From positions 448,001 through 512,000 of the forward strand of contig CBDFJF010000001.1 of the NCBI GenBank assembly GCA_965248265.1: 64,000 nt of DNA, read 5' to 3'. A program made the translations under genes and the position numbers. Below the pieces are notes generated by a model. It did no database searches and was not told the origin of the DNA. It saw nothing but the letters and a program-made list of their open reading frames with translations. Shown here in pieces: positions 13,431-27,641 of the stretch (its first letter is position 1; every line of letters begins with the position of its first letter). The DNA comes from Candidatus Latescibacterota bacterium (GTDB lineage: Bacteria; Latescibacterota; UBA2968; UBA8231).

Positions 13431-14600
13431 TTATTCCGTATTCGTCATGATGTGGTGGTAGATCTCGACTGCTTCGAGTACCTGCTCACATTCCACCCAT
13501 TCAACGGCACCATGCGCCTGGTCGATACTGCCGGGCCCCAGGACGATGGCCGGGACTCCTGCGTCAGCGAACGGACTGCCATCCGTGCCGTAAGGGACGC
13601 CGGCGATGGTGGCGTCGCCGAGAACGGCCCGGCAGGCAGCGACGGAGCTGTTGACGATGGGCGCATCCTCGGCCGTGCCCATCGCTCCACAGGCAAACAT
13701 CAACGGTCTCTCGATGCGGGCGTCCAACTTGGAGTCCTCGGCACCGGCGGCTGAGATGATCTGCTCGAATGCACCGACGACGCTCTCAGGCGTGTCTCCG
13801 GGCAGGATGCGGCAGTCCACGGCAGCGCGGCAGCTGTCGGGGACGAAGTTGATCTGAGCGCCTCCTTCGACGATGCCGACATTGAATGTGGGGTTGCCCA
13901 GGAGAGGGTCGCTCCTGGACTCGTACTGCGGACCCAGTTCATCCTCGAGGCGGACGATGAGCCGCGCCATCTTGTTGATGGCGTTAACTCCCAGGTACGG
14001 CTTGGAACTGTGCGCCGCCTTGCCGTTGACGATGATATGGAAGCGGATGACGCCTTTGTGGCCGCGGATAACTTCGAGATCCGTGGGTTCGGCGATGACG
14101 GCGGCTTCCGCATTCACCAGCGGAGCCATGTGCCTGGCGCCACGCATCAGGTGCTCTTCATCCACGGCGCCGGCATAGGCGATCGACATGGGCGGCACGG
14201 TGCCAGTCTCAACCAGTCGTTTCATGGCATGAATCATGGCAACGCCGCCAGCCTTGGTGTCGCATGAGCCACGGCCATAGAGCAGGCCATCGCGGATGTG
14301 CGGCTCAAACGGGGGGATGGTCATGACTTCGGCTGATGCCGTATCCATGTGGCATTCGAACAGCAGGATGCGATCAGGATTCTGGCCTTGTAGTGTGGCG
14401 ACAATGTTGTTGCGTCCCGGCAGCGCTTCTGACAACTGGTAGGGAATATTCAAGTCGGTGAAAAATCCGGCCAGGTAGTCGACCATGCCGGCCTCGCCTC
14501 GGTCCTTGCCCCCTGGAAGCGAGGGATTGACGCTGTCGATGGCGACGACCTCTTGCAGGGTTGCGAGAATCTCGTTTTCACTGCGCGTCCAGGTAGCCAT
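13431..14600 (-). CDS. M20 family ArgE/DapE-like deacylase
   Basis: HMDT, GRGSCDTK, DEE, AEPT, AAHSS, GTDG, GPG...AH. Confidence 0.9.
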   Translation of the reverse strand: MATWTRSENEILATLQEVVAIDSVNPSLPGGKDRGEAGMVDYLAGFFTDLNIPYQLSEALPGRNNIVATLQGQNPDRILLFECHMDTASAEVMTIPPFEPHIRDGLLYGRGSCDTKAGGVAMIHAMKRLVETGTVPPMSIAYAGAVDEEHLMRGARHMAPLVNAEAAVIAEPTDLEVIRGHKGVIRFHIIVNGKAAHSSKPYLGVNAINKMARLIVRLEDELGPQYESRSDPLLGNPTFNVGIVEGGAQINFVPDSCRAAVDCRILPGDTPESVVGAFEQIISAAGAEDSKLDARIERPLMFACGAMGTAEDAPIVNSSVAACRAVLGDATIAGVPYGTDGSPFADAGVPAIVLGPGSIDQAHGAVEWVECEQVLEAVEIYHHIMTNTE

Positions 14601-14606
14601 GAGCAA

Positions 14607-15082
14607 TCACAGAATCCTGAGGACTGAGTTGACGAATGTGGCGAACACGTCGATGCCGAAGAATAGCCTGAGGAGCTCGTGGACCGCCAGCGGTGAGGCC
14701 AGCAAGAAAGCCAGTGGCAGGCTGCTGTGCAGGGAAAACTTCTCGCGGTTTGCGTGAAACCAGGCCCACAGGATGATCAGCAGTGACGCCCCGATGATCA
14801 GGCCACCCAGCAGGTTGAGAATCCAGACCAGAGCAACCGGAAGGCCCCAGATCGAACCGATGATGTTGTAGGAAAATGGCAACAAATTCGCCCAGAACAG
14901 GCGGTGGTCACGGAGGCCCCGTAGACGAGAACGCCGACGCTCAGACTGCCTCCGGCCAGAGCAAACAGGTCGAGTGGCTGGCGCATTGCGGCGTGCCACC
15001 ACGTCACCGTGGCGATGTGGAGCCACATAAAGAACAGCGCCAGGAAGAGGGCCCTGGCATGATTCGGGGGAGTGAAGGACAT
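14607..15082 (-). pseudogene. Small multi-pass membrane protein split by a frameshift (or sequencing error) at the C4 run 14917-14920
   Basis: The hydrophobic N-terminal half (frame of 14798..15082) and hydrophobic C-terminal half (frame of 14607..15026) join at ...GVLVYG / GLRDHRLFW... into a continuous ~158-aa membrane protein. Confidence 0.6.
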
Positions 15083-15102
15083 GGGTGTCGGTTTTTGGCG
15101 AG

Positions 15103-15648
15103 TCAGTTGCTCTGAGGCATCTCTTCGAGTGGAATCTCCTTGACCAGTTTCTCTATTTGCCGGGCCTGTAACTCGCCCAAATCAGCCTTCCTGTCCTCCG
15201 CACCATGTCTACTCACAAACGCGCGCATCTCCCGCATCAATCGCATATGCAGACCCGCCAGCAGACTGCCGCTTTCGACATCCCTGGCAATGTGCTGGTC
15301 AAAGAAGCGCTCCGCCGCCTGACGCACGTCGGGGTCGTTGTATATCTGGAGGTGGTCTTGCTGGACGGGAGACAGGGTGAGTGACACCAGCTGTTCGATG
15401 AAGCGCTCGCGAAAACCGGACATGTCGGGCCGGTTGGGCTCATAGGAGATAAGCTCGCCGATGTGGCGGCATCCCAGTGCCGTGTAGATGCGATCGAGCG
15501 TTTTCAGGTCGATGCGCTCGATGTCGCCGTTCACCAACCGATTAATCTGCTGCCGTGGCACACCGATCTTGCGCGCCAACTCGGCCTGACTGGGTGAGCC
15601 GGGCCGCTCAAGAAGGTCCTTCAGTCTGAACTTCATCATAGTGGTCAT
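15103..15648 (-). CDS. XRE/Cro-C1 family HTH transcriptional regulator with C-terminal extension
   Basis: FRLKDLL...SQAELARKIGVPRQQINRLVNGDIERIDLKTLDRIYTALGC...GELISY is a typical HTH_26-like domain. Confidence 0.88.
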   Translation of the reverse strand: MTTMMKFRLKDLLERPGSPSQAELARKIGVPRQQINRLVNGDIERIDLKTLDRIYTALGCRHIGELISYEPNRPDMSGFRERFIEQLVSLTLSPVQQDHLQIYNDPDVRQAAERFFDQHIARDVESGSLLAGLHMRLMREMRAFVSRHGAEDRKADLGELQARQIEKLVKEIPLEEMPQSN

Positions 15649-15690
15649 CCACGTTCCATGTTATTTACCCACCTTCCGTGGCTTTTGCAC

Positions 15691-15719
15691 AACTTACAAC
15701 TCTACAAATATCGAGTCAA
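15691..15719 (-). promoter_or_regulatory. Sigma70-like promoter for the XRE gene
   Basis: Minus strand TTGACT-N17-TAAGTT in an AT-rich intergenic region. Confidence 0.5.
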
Positions 15720-15734
15720 CAGATTTATGCACAT

Positions 15735-15778
15735 ATGTCATCAAAAGAGTTGACATTCGTAAACACATAAATTACCTT
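15735..15778 (+). promoter_or_regulatory. Sigma70-like promoter of the Ubl operon with overlapping palindromic operator
   Basis: TTGACA (15750-15755)-N17-TACCTT; inverted repeat ATGTCA-N10-TGACAT (15735-15756) overlaps the -35. Confidence 0.55.
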
Positions 15779-15849
15779 GAGCGCGAAATTCATCCATCCC
15801 ATGAAACTTTGTGGGTTATTGTTTTACTATTTGACACTAAGGAGCGCTC

Positions 15850-16157
15850 ATGTTTCAGACCAGCTTGCGCTACGGCATTCAAAAGGCGATGGAGTCCGAC
15901 GTAGAGCCGGAGCAGTTGCGCACAACGGTAGGGCAGCAAAGGTAGGGCAGCAAATCGAGTATTTGCTGGACGAGTCAGATGATCCGCAGGTAACCGCACA
16001 GATTCGCCAGGCCCTGCGGGATCCACAGGCCACGATCGAAGTGAAGTCTGGAAGCCAGATTCAGACGGCTACTCCCAACATGCCTCTGCGTGAATTGTTG
16101 CCACCCAACAGCGAGAAGATCGAGATCACGGTTAGCCAGCCACACGCGGGAGGCTGA
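15850..16157 (+). pseudogene. Ubiquitin-like (beta-grasp) protein with C-terminal Gly-Gly, interrupted by a 14-bp tandem duplication
   Basis: TAAGGAG RBS 5 nt before ATG 15850. Removing one GGTAGGGCAGCAAA copy gives a 97-aa ORF, MFQTSLRYGIQKAMESDVEPEQLRTTVGQQIEYLL...PNMPLRELLPPNSEKIEITVSQPHAGG*. It lies upstream of an E1. Confidence 0.8.
15927..15954 (+). repeat. Perfect 14-bp tandem duplication (GGTAGGGCAGCAAA)x2
   Basis: Directly visible; creates an in-frame TAG at 15943-15945. Confidence 0.95.
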
Positions 16158-16164
16158 TTCACCC

Positions 16165-17550
16165 GTGAATGGTGGTCCCACAGTGCGTCGCCTCCACCGT
16201 GAACGGGAGGCTCGGATCGTGCAAGCACGGATCACGCAACCGTACGGGAGACAACGCACTACAAGGCGGCCGCGGGCCCACAACGGGAGGGCCAACACGC
16301 CAGAGATCGAGCCCGGGTATTTGCACCACGGATTGGTGCCGCACCCGGAGCTGGTCGTTCCCGCGGCTGCATCGCCGAAGGCTCCATTCCCGCTCAGCAT
16401 CGTCAGCGTGCTCGGGGCCACGGGCAATTGTGATGGCGTGTTCGTCCTCGACGGTCAACTGGGACGCTTGTCCCAGCACAAGCAGTCCCCGACAGACCTG
16501 TTTGTCGAATACGGCGGCATCAGGCAGTACATCCACTTCCAAGCAAGCGTTGAGGAGCGACTCGGAGAGACCGTACGTGCGCGGCTGCCCAGCATCTGGC
16601 AGTGGTTCAGCCAGGCGGGAGCTCGGCGCTATGCCGAACTGGATGGTTGGAGCACGCCGCTGTCGGCTGTGGCGGTCGATCGGGTTGACGGATTCGTCGC
16701 GGAGCGGCTGATCCCCTTCATTGAGGAGCACGTCGAGGAACAGGGTGCACTGGAGCAACAACCGAGCGCGTTTTCGTTCGAGTCCGTGGTTGATCGAGTG
16801 ATGCCAGGCCTGGCAGGCTCCTTCGCCTTTCTCGCTGGCCGCTGGATGCGTTTGATTCCCTTCTTCGGCAGGCCCAGGCCAGGACAGCCACTGCTTCGGG
16901 TGGGCAACGAATACCTGGTCGGCATACAATCGCAGCCTTCAGCCGTTGCCGTGGCGACCTACGATACCGCGCTGCGAGATGCCGTGTGCGCCGCCTGCGC
17001 GGCGGCGGCACGCGATGGTGATCACAGCGACACCCGCAGCGGAGGCGATCTCTACAGACAGGAGCCCTACGCCGTGATCCGCACGCCGCGCGGCCGCTGT
17101 TTTGTGTGTCAGCGCCTGCCGCCGTACGTGGTGGAGGGAATGGACAAGAAGCTCTACTACTTCGATGGCGCCGAGATCGGCATTCACGTGACAACGACCC
17201 AGGTGCAGAGCGTCATCACCTGCGCCTGTGTCCAGGTGCTGCATTCCTACAAACACATGTTCGTGGGCACACTGGGCACCGGCAACTTTATCTGCATGCC
17301 TCGAGATCATTCCTACTACCAGGCCCTCAACCGGGAACCGCTCGAGCGCGCTCTCATCGAGCATCTGGAGTCGGCGCGTATGACCCTGTGTGCCGGCTAC
17401 CAACCAGTCAACTCATCAGTCCACCGTATCCAGAGCGTGGGACGTCGGACGATCAGTCTGTCCGAAGTCCGCAGGAGAAACCTGCCCGTCTACTGGTATT
17501 ACGAACCACGCCGGAGCGCGCGCTCGAAAGTCATGTCGATGTTCGTGTGA
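16165..17550 (+). CDS. Uncharacterised protein with putative C-terminal E2 (UBC)-like domain
   Basis: Sits between Ubl and E1, with TGATG coupling to E1. YKHMFVGTLGTGNFICMP followed by an amphipathic helix (LERALIEHLESARMTL) resembles the E2 HPN...G-x-IC catalytic region. Start GTG 16165 is inferred. Confidence 0.55.
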   Translation: MNGGPTVRRLHREREARIVQARITQPYGRQRTTRRPRAHNGRANTPEIEPGYLHHGLVPHPELVVPAAASPKAPFPLSIVSVLGATGNCDGVFVLDGQLGRLSQHKQSPTDLFVEYGGIRQYIHFQASVEERLGETVRARLPSIWQWFSQAGARRYAELDGWSTPLSAVAVDRVDGFVAERLIPFIEEHVEEQGALEQQPSAFSFESVVDRVMPGLAGSFAFLAGRWMRLIPFFGRPRPGQPLLRVGNEYLVGIQSQPSAVAVATYDTALRDAVCAACAAAARDGDHSDTRSGGDLYRQEPYAVIRTPRGRCFVCQRLPPYVVEGMDKKLYYFDGAEIGIHVTTTQVQSVITCACVQVLHSYKHMFVGTLGTGNFICMPRDHSYYQALNREPLERALIEHLESARMTLCAGYQPVNSSVHRIQSVGRRTISLSEVRRRNLPVYWYYEPRRSARSKVMSMFV

Positions 17551-18869
17551 TGGAGCGATACGCACGACAAACCGTCATCGAAGGATGGGATCAGAGCCGA
17601 TTATCGGCGGCGACCGTCGCCATCGCGGGGACCGGCCCCACCGCTTTCATGTGTGCTCTGCTCTCCGTGGCCATGGGCTTCGGTAGGGTAGTGCTGATCG
17701 GCAAGGCCAAATCAACCGAGGCCGCCACCAAAGATCTTCCCGCACTGATGCAGTCATCGAATGACCTCTGGGTTGAGTTTCTGGGGCAAGTTAATCCGCA
17801 GGTGCGCATCTACCCGGTAAGTCGAACATGCTCACCGGAGTTGATTCGCCGATTGCCGCAGCTGGATGGCCTCGTGGTTGCCGGGAATGATGCGCGGGCG
17901 CTCGGGGTTGGCTGTCAGGTGGCGAGTGACGGCGCGGTTCCCGTGGTCGCCGGAGGTAGTGCCGGGCCTGTCGGTGTATGGGGTGCACCACAACTCGACG
18001 GCCTTACGAGCAAGTTGTCGAGATATCCCGAATCGCCGTTGACGGCCCAGATCATCGCCGCGTTGCTAGTGGAGGAGATCCGTAAGGATCTGCTACCCCT
18101 GTCGAATGAGGCGGGCCGTTCCTCGACCAGGAGGATTGTCGCCCTCTCGCGGCTGGCTCCAGAGAAGGCCAACGGTCGAGACCGGCTGTTCAGACTGACG
18201 ACGGACCAACTGCACATCGTCGGAGCAGGGGCCCTGGGAACCTGGTTCGGCATTGGCCTGGGCCTGGCCGGAGTGCGGGCTCAACTACATATCTTCGACG
18301 GGGATCACGTCGAGGAGACCAACCTCAATCGCCAGGTCCTGTTCGCCGGCGCCGTGGGAAAGCCTAAAGCGACCGTGCTGGCTGCCCGCCTGCAGGATCT
18401 GTTTCCGACGCTGCGGACCAACGGCTACGGGACCAGAGTCGCCGCCGACACGGAAGAGATGATGGAAGGGTCAGGCGTGGTCGCCGCGTGTCCGGACAAC
18501 TTCCAGGTGCGCGCCTTTCTCGCCAGTATGGCCATGCGCCGCAGGCAGACGCTTCTCAACGGAGGCACCAGCGCCGTCGGCGGATCCTGCACCGCTTACG
18601 TACCCGGGCACACCAGCTGCCTGTCGTGTCTGATGGACATCGAGCGCCTCGCCCTGCAGGAGATGGCGCCAACCGGTTGCGCCCAGCAGGTGGAGTCGTC
18701 AGTGGTTACGAGCAATGCCGCCATCGGCGCGCTGATGGCCTGGAGCTTCAAGGAGATGAGGTGTGGCCGGGTGCATCCGGGAATCTGGGAATACGACGGG
18801 CGGTCGCACGGTGAGCGCATCGGGGTGCACTCGGTGAGGCCGGCGTGCGAGTGTCATATGAAGGATTGA
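17550..18869 (+). CDS. E1-like activating enzyme with tandem ThiF domains (inactive + active adenylation domains, Zn site, catalytic Cys)
   Basis: Domain 1: RYARQ...WDQSRL...VAIAGTG (degenerate). Domain 2: GAGALG, DGDHVEETNLNRQ, GKPKA, DNFQVR, CLSC, PTGCA, C-terminal CECH. Start ATG overlaps the upstream TGA. Confidence 0.88.
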   Translation: MERYARQTVIEGWDQSRLSAATVAIAGTGPTAFMCALLSVAMGFGRVVLIGKAKSTEAATKDLPALMQSSNDLWVEFLGQVNPQVRIYPVSRTCSPELIRRLPQLDGLVVAGNDARALGVGCQVASDGAVPVVAGGSAGPVGVWGAPQLDGLTSKLSRYPESPLTAQIIAALLVEEIRKDLLPLSNEAGRSSTRRIVALSRLAPEKANGRDRLFRLTTDQLHIVGAGALGTWFGIGLGLAGVRAQLHIFDGDHVEETNLNRQVLFAGAVGKPKATVLAARLQDLFPTLRTNGYGTRVAADTEEMMEGSGVVAACPDNFQVRAFLASMAMRRRQTLLNGGTSAVGGSCTAYVPGHTSCLSCLMDIERLALQEMAPTGCAQQVESSVVTSNAAIGALMAWSFKEMRCGRVHPGIWEYDGRSHGERIGVHSVRPACECHMKD

Positions 18870-18892
18870 CGCTGAAGTTCATGACGGGAAAC

Positions 18893-18989
18893 AGGCACCT
18901 ACGTTGCCATCACGTAATTACCTGTTTATCGCAAACAAACATGGTGGCTCCTCGCGGAATCGAACCGCGGACACGGGGATTTTCGGTCC
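18893..18989 (-). repeat. Att-like direct repeat: tRNA-Phe 3' fragment (18942-18989) plus downstream hairpin
   Basis: Near-identical to 20813-20909 (tRNA 3' 48 nt and the AGGCACCTACGTTGC...ACGTAA...CCTGTTT hairpin). Confidence 0.85.
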
Positions 18990-19192
18990 GGTCCCGAAGA
19001 AAACAAGATCAACCTCTAACACGCATTAAGACACTAGTGGACACCTGCTTGATCATGCTGGGGATGATCTAACCGCCCCGTGCTTGGTCCACCCTCCGAA
19101 TCTCCGTACCCTATCGATCAACCCTGAGCCGATATCCATGCGATCTATTCGAACTCCCCCTGTGTCGGGGTGTTCGGGAAGCCTCATGATGC

Positions 19193-20584
19193 ATGACGAG
19201 TGACAAGAACAAGACAAAGGCGCAACTGCTGGTTGAGGTGAAAGAGTTACGTGAGGCGCGCGCAACCAGTGAATCAGCGGAACGCATTCGAGAGGCAGTG
19301 CTGTCGATGCGGCACAGTGATGACTTGATGAACGTAATGGGGTTGATGGTTGTGGAGTTGAGGCAGCTCGGAATAGAAGATATATGTTGCGGCATCAGTT
19401 TTTTCGATGAAGAGAGCGATCTCCGAATCGATTATTACGGTTGGGACAATCCACGCCATTACGGCATTTCCTGGACCTCGTCTGCGGTGAGGGAGATAAC
19501 CGACACGGTAGCGGGTTACAAATTTGAGCGGAAACTATCGGAGAGTCCCTCGAAAACATTTGAAATCTGGCGCCGGGGCAAGGTGCACCACGGCGGAGAG
19601 GGGATGAAATATTGGATTGAACGGACCAGTCGCGAGTTTGTGGAACGGTTCGGGTTCAGCCGTCCTCTACCTTGGTTTGATCGGGAGGATGTGAACGTGA
19701 CATACGTGCCTTTCGAACATGGAATAGTTCACGCTCTTGGCAGTACGTTGTCAGCTTCCGAGGTGGGGTTCGTAAAACACTTCACTACAGCTCTATCCCT
19801 GGGGTACGTCCGCTTTCGCGACTTCCAGTGCCTTGAGGAAAGAGCACGCCAGCTAGAACAGGAACTGGAGACAGCCCGCGATCTGCAGATGGCGCTCATG
19901 CCAACGGATTCTCCGGCTATCGAGGGACTACAGATTGCAGCTCGTTGCATCCCCGCCACACAGGTAGGTGGTGATTTCTTCCAATACTTCCACACTGACG
20001 ATCGCCTCTCCATTTCCATAGCAGACGTGACCGGCCACGCGATGGAAGCCGCCATCCCCGTAGTCATGTTCGAGGGTGTACTGTCCAGCCAAATGCGTAT
20101 CGGACCGGATCTGGAGAGCCTGTTCACTGCCCTCAATGACGTAATGGCCGATAGGCTCACAGGCCGCACCCATGTCTGTTTCTCCATGGCTCAGATCGAT
20201 ATCAACACCAGAGCAGTTCGCTTCGCCAATGCCGGTTGCCCGTATCCCTACCATTACAACGCGATCTCAGAGACCGTCACCGAGCTTGAGGCCAACGCAT
20301 ATCCTTTTGGTGTACGCGCAGGCACGACCTACCAAGCCGTCGAGGCCCAATTGGAACCAGGCGATCGACTCGTGTTCTGCTCTGACGGCATCATGGAGGC
20401 CAGGAACCCTGAGGGTGAGATGTATGGTTTCGACCAGACGGCTGAGACGGTCCGCCAGGGCTGCCAGGACGGTCTGGCCTCGGAGGCGTTGCTGGATCGT
20501 ATTGTCGTCGACGTGCGATCCTTCAGCGGCGAGCAGCCCCAAGAGGACGATCAGACTATCGTAATTATAGGCGTTGAATCTTGA
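19193..20584 (+). CDS. PP2C/SpoIIE (RsbU-like) serine phosphatase with N-terminal GAF-like region
   Basis: ELETARDLQMALMP, VGGDFF, IADVTGH, NAG, SDGIMEA, DDQT. Confidence 0.9.
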   Translation: MTSDKNKTKAQLLVEVKELREARATSESAERIREAVLSMRHSDDLMNVMGLMVVELRQLGIEDICCGISFFDEESDLRIDYYGWDNPRHYGISWTSSAVREITDTVAGYKFERKLSESPSKTFEIWRRGKVHHGGEGMKYWIERTSREFVERFGFSRPLPWFDREDVNVTYVPFEHGIVHALGSTLSASEVGFVKHFTTALSLGYVRFRDFQCLEERARQLEQELETARDLQMALMPTDSPAIEGLQIAARCIPATQVGGDFFQYFHTDDRLSISIADVTGHAMEAAIPVVMFEGVLSSQMRIGPDLESLFTALNDVMADRLTGRTHVCFSMAQIDINTRAVRFANAGCPYPYHYNAISETVTELEANAYPFGVRAGTTYQAVEAQLEPGDRLVFCSDGIMEARNPEGEMYGFDQTAETVRQGCQDGLASEALLDRIVVDVRSFSGEQPQEDDQTIVIIGVES

Positions 20585-20805
20585 CGTTAGGGTGGACCTG
20601 ACCACGAATGAATCGACTGATTAGACAGGCCGTTCTGATGCTCGATCTGTTCTGCGGGTAAGCCATTGCGTCTTCTGCAACAAGGAAGGGCTCAATAACG
20701 CCGCGGAGAGAGCAGGTACCCAAGTCTCACATGACCACGAAAAGAGTGCGATCCAACAGCTTCGGTACCAAGATAGTCGCCACAAGACGCAAAAGACTGC
20801 ATAAC

Positions 20806-20843
20806 AAAAAAAAGGCACCTACGTTGCTATCACGTAAGTGCCT
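20806..20843 (-). terminator. Intrinsic terminator downstream of tRNA-Phe
   Basis: Minus strand AGGCACTTACGT-loop-ACGTAGGTGCC followed by T8. Confidence 0.7.
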
Positions 20844-20861
20844 GTTTACATTAAAGAAATA

Positions 20862-20937
20862 TGGTGGCTCCTCGCAGAATCGAACTGCGGACACGGGGAT
20901 TTTCAGTCCCCTGCTCTACCGACTGAGCTAAAGAGCC
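20862..20937 (-). tRNA. tRNA-Phe (GAA)
   Basis: Reverse complement GGCTCTTTAGCTCAGTCGGTAGAGCAGGGGACTGAAAATCCCCGTGTCCGCAGTTCGATTCTGCGAGGAGCCACCA: 76-nt cloverleaf, GAA anticodon, encoded CCA. Confidence 0.97.
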
Positions 20938-25175: not shown

Positions 25176-25541
25176 TCAAAAATCGAGGACCTGTTTCAGG
25201 CACAATTCAACAATCCGCATCAGCTGCAATGAGGCCGGCGCCAAGCGTTTGATGGGCTTGCCAGAATCCGCATCATACAAACGCCGATTGTCGATCGCCC
25301 TGATCTGGTCGATCAGAATGTCGGACGGTTTGAGGCCCTTTGTGCGCGCAGGAACCCGAACCCTAAGGGGTTCGGCGTCGTCCACTATGCGAGTTGTGAG
25401 AGGAACCACGATCGTCGAAGGATGTCCCGTGCGGCTCAGGAGATCGCTCTGCAGAACCAGGACAGGACGCGTTTTTCCTGGCTCCGTTCCGCGACGGGGG
25501 CGCAAGTCCGCCAGATAGAACCAACCGCGTTCGATTTGCAT
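25176..25541 (-). CDS. MazF/PemK family toxin (type II toxin-antitoxin)
   Basis: MQIERGWFYLADL...GTEPGKTRPVLVLQ...IVVPLTT...DQIRAID. Confidence 0.9.
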   Translation of the reverse strand: MQIERGWFYLADLRPRRGTEPGKTRPVLVLQSDLLSRTGHPSTIVVPLTTRIVDDAEPLRVRVPARTKGLKPSDILIDQIRAIDNRRLYDADSGKPIKRLAPASLQLMRIVELCLKQVLDF

Positions 25542-25558
25542 CGTCGTAACGCCAGTCG

Positions 25559-25813
25559 TCAACGCCGGGATTCGATTTCCTCGTCGATATCGAACTCGGC
25601 CGCTTCCATCTCCCGGTTGACCTCGAGGTTTTTTCCTCGGCACTTCATGGAGGCATCGAGAAATTTGCTGGCCAGCACCTCCCTCTCGACAATGGTATTG
25701 TACTGCGCGATGGCTTCACGGATGTATGATGTACGCGTCGTAGATCGGCACCCGGCCAGGTAATCGGTCTTCGCCAGCTGTTCTGAGTCGAGCTTGAGGT
25801 TAATCTGAGCCAT
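25559..25813 (-). CDS. Ribbon-helix-helix (CopG-like) antitoxin
   Basis: QINLKLD...TRTSYIREAI, acidic C-terminus, directly upstream of the toxin. Confidence 0.8.
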   Translation of the reverse strand: MAQINLKLDSEQLAKTDYLAGCRSTTRTSYIREAIAQYNTIVEREVLASKFLDASMKCRGKNLEVNREMEAAEFDIDEEIESRR

Positions 25814-25946
25814 ATCGCACCATCATGAACATAAGATATGAACATATATTGTATATATTAAAAGAATACGTAATTTCAATACTTTCGCAAGTTCGGACCA
25901 TTCCTCCCCTGAACAAGCTCCGTACCCGATCGTAAAGGGAGAGATC

Positions 25947-27641
25947 ATGGCGTCATCGACCAAGGCCGCATCCAGGAAGAAGGGCAAGGCCCCTGCCAAG
26001 TCCAAGCGTCCGCGCGGATCCGGAAAGCCGGCCGCCGTCGAGGCAACGGCGGATTCGTCCAAACCACCGAAGCCCAAAACCAGCGGCAACGGCAAGGCCA
26101 CTGCGCAAACCATGGCGCTCAAGCAGCGCGAGATTTCCGTCTCCGAGTTCTTCAGTCGCAACCGTCATCTGCTCGGCTTCGACAATCCGCGGCGCGCCCT
26201 GTTGACCGGGGTCAAGGAAGCGGTCGACAAGAGCCTCGACGCCTGCGAAGAGGCTGGCATCCTGCCGCAGCTCATGGTCGAAATCGAATCAACCGCCGAA
26301 GACCGTTACATCATGCGGGTTCAGGACAACGGACCCGGAATCGTGAAGACGCAGATTCCGAATATCTTCGGTAAGCTGCTATACGGTTCGAAGTTCCATC
26401 GTCTGCGCATGTCACGTGGTCAGCAGGGGATCGGCATCTCGGCCGCCAGCATGTACGGCCAACTCACCACGGGTAAACCGACGCGGATCATTTCCCGCAT
26501 CAGCACCCGCCGGCCGGCACACCAGTACGAGATCGTCATCAACACGACCAAGAACAAACCCGAAGTCATCCGTGATATAGAGATCGAAGGTGATGAGTAC
26601 CGGCGGGGCACGATGGTAGAGATAGAAATGGAGGCGCGCTATCTCAAGGGGCGGCAGTCCGTCGACGAGTACCTCAGGCAGACGGTGTTGACGAATCCCC
26701 ATATGGAGTTGCTCTTCCGGGCTCCTGACGGCACGGAGACAGTCTACGAGCGCTCAACCAGGGACCTGCCGCAGGAGACGATCGAAGTAAAGCCGCATCC
26801 ACATGGAGTTGAGCTGGGTGCACTGATGAAGATGATGCAGGATACGCCATCCCGCACCGTGCAAGCGTTTCTGACCAGCGAATTCTGCAGGGTGTCGACA
26901 AGGGTCGCAAAAGAGTTCTGCGACACGGCACAGATTCGGCCCACGGCTCGCCCCAAGAGCATAGCCCGAGAGGAGACGGACCGCCTCTACAAGGCGATCA
27001 ACAATACGAAACTGATGAAGCCGCCGACCAATTGTATCGTACCGATTGGAGAAGAGCTGGTGTTGAGCAGTCTTCAGCAGAACGTCGAGGCCGAGTTCTT
27101 CACCTCGACGACGAGGCCACCGGCCGTGTACCGTGGCAATCCGTTTCAAATTGAAGTGGCGATGGCCTACGGTGGCGACATCGATCCCGAGGGGACGCTG
27201 ACGCTGATGCGTTTCGCCAACCGCGTCCCTCTACTGTATCAACAGGCCGCGTGTGCGATAACGAAGAGTGTGATTGACGTGGACTGGCGCAAGTACCGGA
27301 TGAGCCAGAGCGGCAACGCGTTGCCGACGGGTCCCCTGGTGGTACTCGTGCACATGGCCTCGGTGTGGGTGCCGTTCACCTCCGAAAGCAAGGAAGCCGT
27401 CGCCCATTATCCGGAGATCATCAAGGAGATTCGCCTGGCACTGCAGGAGTGCGGGCGGAGAGTGGGTGAGCATTTGGGTCGCCAGCGCCGAGCCGAGGAA
27501 GCCGAGCGCAAGCGCGATTACATTCAGAGTTACATCGGCCACATAGCTGACGCTATTCAGGAGATTACCGGCGACAGCGAGCGCAAACGCAACACCGTGG
27601 AAAAGTCGTTGCGTACGATTTTGGAGAGGAGCCGCTCATGA
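25947..27641 (+). CDS. top6B: DNA topoisomerase VI subunit B
   Basis: [50 protein letters not shown]; Lys-rich N-terminal extension. Confidence 0.93.

Follow-up and report, generated by a model that had tools for sequence, protein, structure and literature searches.

The E1 gene and its two homologous halves

The window analysed here, a 64,000-nt stretch of contig CBDFJF010000001.1 (positions 448,001 to 512,000) from a Candidatus Latescibacterota bacterium, carries an operon composed of a small Gly-Gly protein, an E2-fold protein and, in last position, an E1, i.e. an enzyme of the type that activates ubiquitin and ubiquitin-like proteins (Ubl); both JAB and unfoldase are absent from the module in the local clade. 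The E1 gene (17550..18869, + strand) encodes 439 aa in which, as judged from the open reading frame (ORF), Pfam, an AlphaFold model and a census of homologues, an inactive adenylation domain (IAD) and an active one (AAD) are joined in a single chain without CYS or UFD domain. Its ATG start overlaps the stop codon of the upstream E2-fold ORF (TGATG). A longer form starting at 17106 (587 aa) was rejected because it would run into the reading frame of E2, and the Met at 17550 is where homologues start. A promoter scan gave no signal exceeding chance.

The original prediction, made from the letters of the window, described this gene as a eukaryote-like E1 and listed its motifs, every one of which was found at its position within 17550-18869. 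The N-terminal part contains RYARQ (residues 3-7) and W13-x-Q15-x-x-L18, and the C-terminal part GAGALG (225-230), DGDHVEETNLNRQ (250-262), GKPKA (270-274) and DN (316-317), followed by CLSC (357-360), PTGC with Cys377 (codon 18678) and CECH (433-436). The IAD spans aa 1-190 (17550..18119, +), with RYARQ present and the P-loop, DxD, NLNRQ and crossover-loop Cys missing, and the AAD spans aa 213-439 (18186..18866, +), with GAGALG at 18222-18239, D250-Q262 at 18297-18335, K273, D316 and the Zn ligands C357, C360, C433 and C435.

Two Pfam ThiF matches had been proposed as the demonstration of the tandem arrangement; this part did not hold, as Pfam finds one ThiF stretch (209-417, E 2.6e-37) and no second PF00899 match. 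The single-chain IAD-AAD layout itself stands on other evidence. Half-profiles built from 132 distinct homologues align with each other at P 99.7% (E 1.6e-26, 166 columns; hhalign), while 10 column-shuffled controls gave P 0.06-0.41%. The N-half profile matches E. coli MoeB (E 1e-23), which is also the best PDB match of the IAD profile, and in a less diverged homologue, L015, two stretches are matched by ThiF/MoeB models. The AlphaFold model (pLDDT 93.4, pTM 0.94) overlays at full length, as the prediction anticipated, both UBA1 (9mcb; Z 31.7, root-mean-square deviation (rmsd) 3.5, 416 aligned, end to end) and BilD (8tz0; Z 32.8, rmsd 3.0, 371 aligned, covering residues 1-439); single-domain E1s reach Z ≤24.9 over ~210 residues.

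The division of labour between the two halves is apparent from the motif census: RxxRQ, GxGxxG and NLxRQ are found in 121, 8 and 2 of the 132 N-halves and in 2, 131 and 130 of the C-halves, respectively, so that the N-terminal copy has indeed kept its arginine motif and lost the nucleotide motifs. Arg6 itself (codon 17565) is kept in 129/132 homologues and falls in register with MoeB Arg14, which we take to have the corresponding role in MoeB; both observations lend support to an arginine acting in trans. In BilD, too, an arginine (Arg9) comes from the IAD (bioRxiv 10.1101/2023.09.26.559546). Overall, sequence and model indicate that one E1 chain is predicted to fold as the pseudo-dimer that ThiF and MoeB form as homodimers, with the ATP site only in the C-terminal half and the arginine motif only in the N-terminal half.

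Cys377 (18678..18680, +), on a short crossover loop, is the predicted thioester-forming residue on the strength of its conservation: it is invariant in a smaller set of 74/74 homologues and kept in 130/132 of the full set, the remaining two being truncated at that site. The four Zn ligands are present or lost together (all four in 77/132, none in 46/132), with the Cys found in both groups; its retention in all 46 homologues that lack both Zn pairs and are complete there suggests that Cys377 has a role of its own. The Zn ligands proposed from CLSC and CECH are retained as CxxC and, for the last pair, C433/C435 (CxC); His436 is conserved in 16/132 homologues and drops out. The distance from CxxC to the following helix is 28-47 residues in 129/132 homologues and longer in none, three being truncated. 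No helical CYS domain is thus present in the crossover loop of E1, where the model has one short helix, and the Cys-bearing loop is short in the manner of UBA5 and ThiF.

Partner genes, decay of the local copy and surroundings

The E2-fold protein (16165..17550, +; 461 aa, GTG start) has a UBC core split by an insertion, extra N-terminal domains and the motif H364-M-F-V...C377 (codons 17254 and 17293). It has no match in Pfam, NCBIfam or PADLOC, nor by Foldseek on its model. A structural search with the model returned E2/UBC-fold entries in all of the top 21 rows (Z 5.7-7.5, residues ~165-430). In the family, the H-x-F...C motif has the Cys in 108/111 and the His in 90/111 members, the His preceding the Cys. 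Ten loci encode 2-3 E2 paralogues with 16-60% identity, most with the Cys intact (L008, L013, L030, L096, L103, L111 and L119 among them). As no E3 is seen, the extra E2 domains probably choose the target.

The small Gly-Gly-ending protein (15850..16157, +), a putative Ubl, has ~97 aa in relatives; here it is frameshifted. In 56 aligned Ubls the last Gly of Gly-Gly is invariant and the first is present in at least 90%. A Gly-Gly Ubl is encoded at 86 loci: a tail following Gly-Gly is combined with a JAB at 65 of them, both are missing at 10, a JAB occurs without a tail at 5, and at 6 a tail was seen but no JAB. The 10 loci form one clade, that of this window, and the loss of tail and JAB thus counts as one event. 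Two further genes are conserved with the module in the local clade: a divergent Cro/C1-type helix-turn-helix (HTH) regulator (15103..15639, -; Pfam HTH_26, E 5e-14) and, downstream of it, a hydrophobic, probably membrane protein (14607..15082, -), whose gene is frameshifted here near 14907-14960.

The lesion in the Ubl gene is an exact 14-nt tandem duplication (15927..15954, +), a point missed by the original prediction. The duplication is identical in contigs of sequencing runs X1 and X3, which cover both frameshift sites without differences. An assembly error behind the Ubl frameshift is accordingly not supported, and because these contigs match, neither frameshift, in the Ubl or in the hydrophobic gene, is an error of the final assembly; note that X1 and X3 may be the source sample. 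Nor did a programmed frameshift gain ground, as inspection revealed no convincing slippery site and the relatives encode the Ubl in one frame. A profile search of the host genome (92% complete) found no second Ubl and no family-type JAB; one unlinked generic Prok-JAB is present. With its only tag gene frameshifted, the local copy of the module is probably inactive, an intact-looking E1 and E2 without a tag to move.

Similar damage is seen elsewhere. Over 14400-19200, runs X5/X6, from another study, represent a strain ~91% identical to this one, which carries an additional base at 14907, two at 15940 (listed for X6) and short deletions in E2; counting these indels, the reading frames of both its Ubl and its E2 are disturbed as well. 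Many close relatives have lesions, in genes that differ from one to the next (L169 in G008, L170 in G021, L171 in G011 and L177 in G098; proteins P0046, P0135, P0004 and P0113), namely a Ubl frameshift, frameshifts in E2 and E1, a membrane gene with an insertion, and a split E2 near transposase-like ORFs, some of these possibly being long-read errors. Three loci, L087, L088 and L002, appear intact.

Downstream of E1, a 110-nt, 85% identical copy of the 3' half of tRNA-Phe and its downstream sequence (18880-18989 and 20800-20937) flanks a SpoIIE-type phosphatase gene (19193-20584) and resembles a small integrated piece; L087 has a like repeat downstream of its E1. This repeat encloses the SpoIIE gene and not the module, so that a module residing inside a tRNA-integrated element was rejected. 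Further on, two short adjoining genes (25176-25845, -) look by eye like a MazF/PemK-type toxin-antitoxin pair, and the gene at 25947-27641 (+) presumably resembles DNA topoisomerase VI subunit B, here in a bacterium.

Distribution of the family and the proposed conjugation pathway

To place the module, we collected 160 loci, some of them duplicates: the 80 top-ranking ones among 473 found in genomes and the 80 top-ranking ones among 355 from metagenomes. Gene-context counts were restricted to the 75 loci with at least 7 kb upstream of E1. A Ubl is encoded in 63 of these, an E2 in 69, a JAB in 67, a ClpX-like ATPase in 32, an ARC/Mpa-like ATPase in 11 and either ATPase in 43. The usual gene order in relatives is Ubl-E2-(helical protein, ClpX-like)-JAB-E1. 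The relatives in DPANN archaea and Desulfobacterota have a JAB peptidase in addition, often with a ClpX-like or ARC/Mpa-like unfoldase; the strict JAMM pattern occurs in 104/116 JAB ORFs and a variant in most others. Host labels of the 80 genome loci include Thermodesulfobacteriota (22), Woesearchaeota (18), Nanobdellota (6), Methanobacteriota (5, so labelled) and Latescibacterota (3). The E1 gene is patchy, being present in 7/61 related genomes and 8/168 genomes of the phylum. A profile search (E ≤1e-30) gave 618 clusters at 50% identity, an upper bound on the size of the family since strong single-domain matches may be included.

In an unrooted FastTree phylogeny of 79 rows most of the diversity is archaeal, and the local clade groups with Acetothermia-type rows. 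When the same tree is midpoint-rooted, the Desulfobacterota-type E1s nest among Woesearchaeota and Aenigmarchaeota rows (support 99-100, no clade test), a hint from sequence of a possible transfer from archaea to bacteria. Carriage by viruses found little echo, with one weak single-domain match among 71 pattern matches; on plasmids, 205 records match the AAD, all at <60% identity, and the best rows listed are 23-52% identical over parts. Longer fused E1 forms (855-2440 aa) were not found, which is weak evidence, and a full-text literature search, whose coverage leaves out most subscription papers, returned no description of this E1 family.

The ARC/Mpa-like ATPase is encoded ahead of the Ubl at L008:1492-3000 and at 13 further loci, most of them from DPANN, and scores 400.8 bits with TIGR03689 against a cut-off of 504.75. 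A conserved HbYX-type end is absent from the 12 checked. In the four ARC-bearing host genomes tested, all incomplete, proteasome-family subunits were present in 4/4 and a Pup ligase in 0/4. Next to E1 at Desulfobacterota-type loci (L039:9302-9571 and 15 others) lies a helical protein of 89 aa whose C-terminus reads PPHG, VPH or similar. It was considered as a second tag and set aside, having no Gly-Gly and no family match at these 16 loci; it is a possible substrate or adaptor.

We propose that the module probably performs E1-E2 conjugation of a ubiquitin-like tag, with the chemical steps inferred from sequence and model and the Ubl fold putative. The AAD would adenylate the small protein encoded upstream at its terminal Gly-Gly, using Arg6 of the IAD. 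By analogy with UBA5, no mobile CYS domain would be needed for the E1~Ubl thioester, which would then form at Cys377 in the short loop. The tag would next move to Cys377 of the E2-fold protein, whose extra domains probably pick the target, and finally be attached to amines of that target. In most relatives the JAB would trim the tail after Gly-Gly and the ClpX-like or ARC/Mpa-like ATPase would probably handle the tagged proteins; the local clade has lost JAB and ATPase and encodes a ready-made Gly-Gly end, under the HTH regulator.

Several observations weigh against this proposal. ThiF and MoeB carry a loop Cys too, and Cys377 alone is therefore no proof of a thioester. The E2 match is modest (Z <8, rmsd 3.5-4.7, none by Foldseek), and the register of its Cys with known E2s was judged by motif and not by coordinates. 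The beta-grasp fold of the Gly-Gly protein is weakly supported: the Atlas match to a ubiquitin cluster has TM 0.50 over 74 residues for a model whose pLDDT is 0.59, and unrelated folds reach similar scores; no PDB profile, NCBIfam or second Atlas match was obtained, and no similarity to the BilA of locus L185 was found. Lastly, in the link between tail and JAB the tail-less state comes from one clade, and all six tail-only loci end within 2.4 kb of E1.

If the Gly-Gly protein were instead adenylated to yield a thiocarboxylate, as by ThiF or MoeB, and the E2-like protein were a persulfide carrier, the operon would belong to a sulfur-carrier or cofactor pathway. Both E1 halves do score well against ThiF/MoeB, the closest named cluster for the small protein in the Atlas carries a ThiS label (score 0.75, 24% of members), and JAB and Clp-related genes are reported in sulfur-carrier operons too (PMC1779556). 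We nevertheless consider this very improbable: E1 reaches none of the ThiF/MoeB/MoeZ NCBIfam cut-offs (best 94.9 against 275 bits), it has no rhodanese domain, as already noted in the original prediction, no desulfurase, ThiG or MoaE appears among the annotated recurrent neighbours, an E2-fold protein with a conserved Cys is encoded in 69/75 loci, and the host genome has a separate MoeB-like gene as well as its separate Prok-JAB. The conserved Cys, the cut-offs and the upstream Gly-Gly and E2-fold genes together support the claim, made at the outset, of a conjugation E1 rather than a sulfur-carrier activator. The absence of a mobile CYS domain for shuttling between sites would also suit a variant resembling Bub, whose preprint announces a diverged mechanism in its title (10.1101/2024.11.21.623953); the tag adenylate would then pass directly to E2 or to a non-lysine acceptor, and Cys377 of E1 would be structural or regulatory. 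That Cys377 is conserved more than the Zn ligands, and that UBA5 and ATG7 use a loop Cys without CYS domain (PMC12355090), makes this unlikely.

The purpose of conjugation is a separate matter. The same chemistry could serve anti-phage defence as in Bil, with phage proteins being tagged and the ATPases accessory, which we regard as a serious possibility although the odds are somewhat against it. It would fit the BilABCD gene order, the patchy range of E1, the frequent breakage of the module and its divergent HTH regulator, the location past the 3' end of a tRNA-Phe, both here and in L087, and the ten loci with several E2 paralogues. Against it, PADLOC matches (E ≤1e-15) were found in 6/140 sampled flanking ORFs (of 227 candidates at 48 loci, no background control) and include a generic kinase, an ankyrin protein and a Cas12f/TnpB-type protein; the recurrent neighbours of the E1 loci are metabolic or housekeeping genes (pyruvate kinase, EF-1alpha, FKBP), and BilD, BilB and BilA are not close to the module proteins. 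The unfoldases in 43/75 loci and the proteasome-family genes without Pup ligase in the 4/4 genomes suggest turnover of tagged proteins, the module of the local clade being without unfoldase. Carried further, and here we are speculating, the family might represent a DPANN-centred pathway resembling the ubiquitin-proteasome one and passed to bacteria, in which a minimal IAD-AAD E1 and a substrate-choosing E2 deliver tagged proteins to an ARC/Mpa-like or ClpX-like unfoldase; because the four incomplete ARC-bearing genomes have proteasome subunits and no Pup ligase, the Ubl would replace Pup. On present evidence we think this rather unlikely.

Relation to known E1 systems

In the literature compared, no prokaryotic E1 other than BilD has the eukaryotic IAD-AAD layout, and BilD has served as an argument for an origin of canonical ubiquitination in bacterial immunity. 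The family described here is a second, large one: it has the IAD-AAD layout but no CYS domain, its sequences are remote from BilD, and its greatest diversity lies in DPANN archaea. With it one can ask directly if E1-to-E2 transfer needs a CYS domain and if the layout has more than one origin, and its link to unfoldases suggests protein turnover by tagging, beyond phage defence alone. Should the DPANN pathway prove true, E1 would either be a living model of the step that separates MoeB homodimers from UBA1 or have acquired the layout independently. Note that the local copy, with its broken tag gene, is a poor test object; for reconstitution, relatives with three intact genes provide the smallest system.

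BilD of the BilABCD Types I and II (8tz0, 8tyz; 10.1101/2023.09.26.559546) resembles E1 in its single-chain IAD-AAD, its IAD arginine, the lack of a UFD and a Zn site made of a loop CxxC and a C-terminal CxC. BilABCD and most relatives of E1 also share the order Ubl-E2-JAB-E1 and a tail after Gly trimmed by JAB, an order not found at the local locus, which has no JAB and none of the family type elsewhere in the genome. In Type II BilD the crossover loop holds an inserted helical CYS domain of ~80 aa (10.1101/2023.09.26.559546), which E1 lacks, and the two proteins are 15-16% identical in the structural overlay. The E2 of the E1 family has its His before the Cys (HPF/HMF...C) and 370-680 aa, whereas BilB has a conserved His after the Cys and ~160 aa. 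The family further differs from Bil in its co-encoded unfoldases and its hosts, DPANN archaea, Desulfobacterota and Latescibacterota. The one BilD model tried, PADLOC PDLC03847, has no match at the E1 gene up to E 10, and PF14459 matches 0/74 E1 homologues at E 0.05. A complete Type I BilABCD operon (L185, in G213) served as comparison: its BilD, the one BilD sequence used, is missed by both E1 half-profiles (best E 0.48) and aligns at P 50%, and its BilB gives no alignment with the E2-fold family. The E1 module would work like Bil but falls outside it.

Bub (6E/DUF6527), Cap2/CBASS, PRTRC (6D) and the FtsH-ternary tri-ligase are prokaryotic modules of E1 and E2, with or without JAB and Ubl, as well, and some prokaryotic Ubl modules have been linked to AAA+ ATPases and Pup systems (Kaur 2020, PMC7159879). 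These four use E2-E1 or JAB-E1 fusions, DUF6527, CD-NTase, RING or EAD1, none of which is seen with E1 here, and tandem adenylation domains are not described for their E1s in the texts compared. The present E1 is unfused and its N-terminal half is a ThiF copy; Cap2 models match the AAD only, and TIGR03736 (PRTRC ThiF) scores 31 against 144.75 bits.

Among eukaryotic enzymes, UBA1/UBA6/UBA7, SAE1-UBA2 and NAE1-UBA3 share the IAD-AAD pseudo-dimer with E1, 416/439 residues of which overlay human UBA1. They differ in having FCCH, SCCH and UFD domains and ~1000 aa against 439; E1 scores 44 against 750 bits with TIGR01408, and no E3 is seen. The label "eukaryote-like" given by the original prediction therefore holds for the architecture and not for the missing CYS/SCCH, FCCH and UFD domains, nor do profile scores favour UBA1 over ThiF/MoeB: the AAD profile matches yeast Uba1 at E 1e-35 (two stretches summed), UBA2 at 7e-33, ThiF at 3e-31 and MoeB at 2e-30, with BilD outside the best 60. 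Because UBA1/UBA2 thus score about as well as ThiF/MoeB with the AAD profile, and MoeB scores best with the IAD, descent and convergence of the tandem layout are not separated. In a domain tree of 41 rows (11 outgroup rows, one BilD, no eukaryotic sequences), IAD and AAD stand apart from the single-domain E1s and the BilD AAD (SH-aLRT only 82, long branches), a separation that is not decisive. ThiF and MoeB have the same fold as E1 but are single-domain homodimers that act in sulfur transfer without an E2. UBA5, the E1 of UFM1, and ATG7 resemble E1 in having the catalytic Cys (predicted in E1) on a bare crossover loop (PMC12355090), and differ from it in being homodimers of one active domain, whereas E1 is a fused asymmetric pair.

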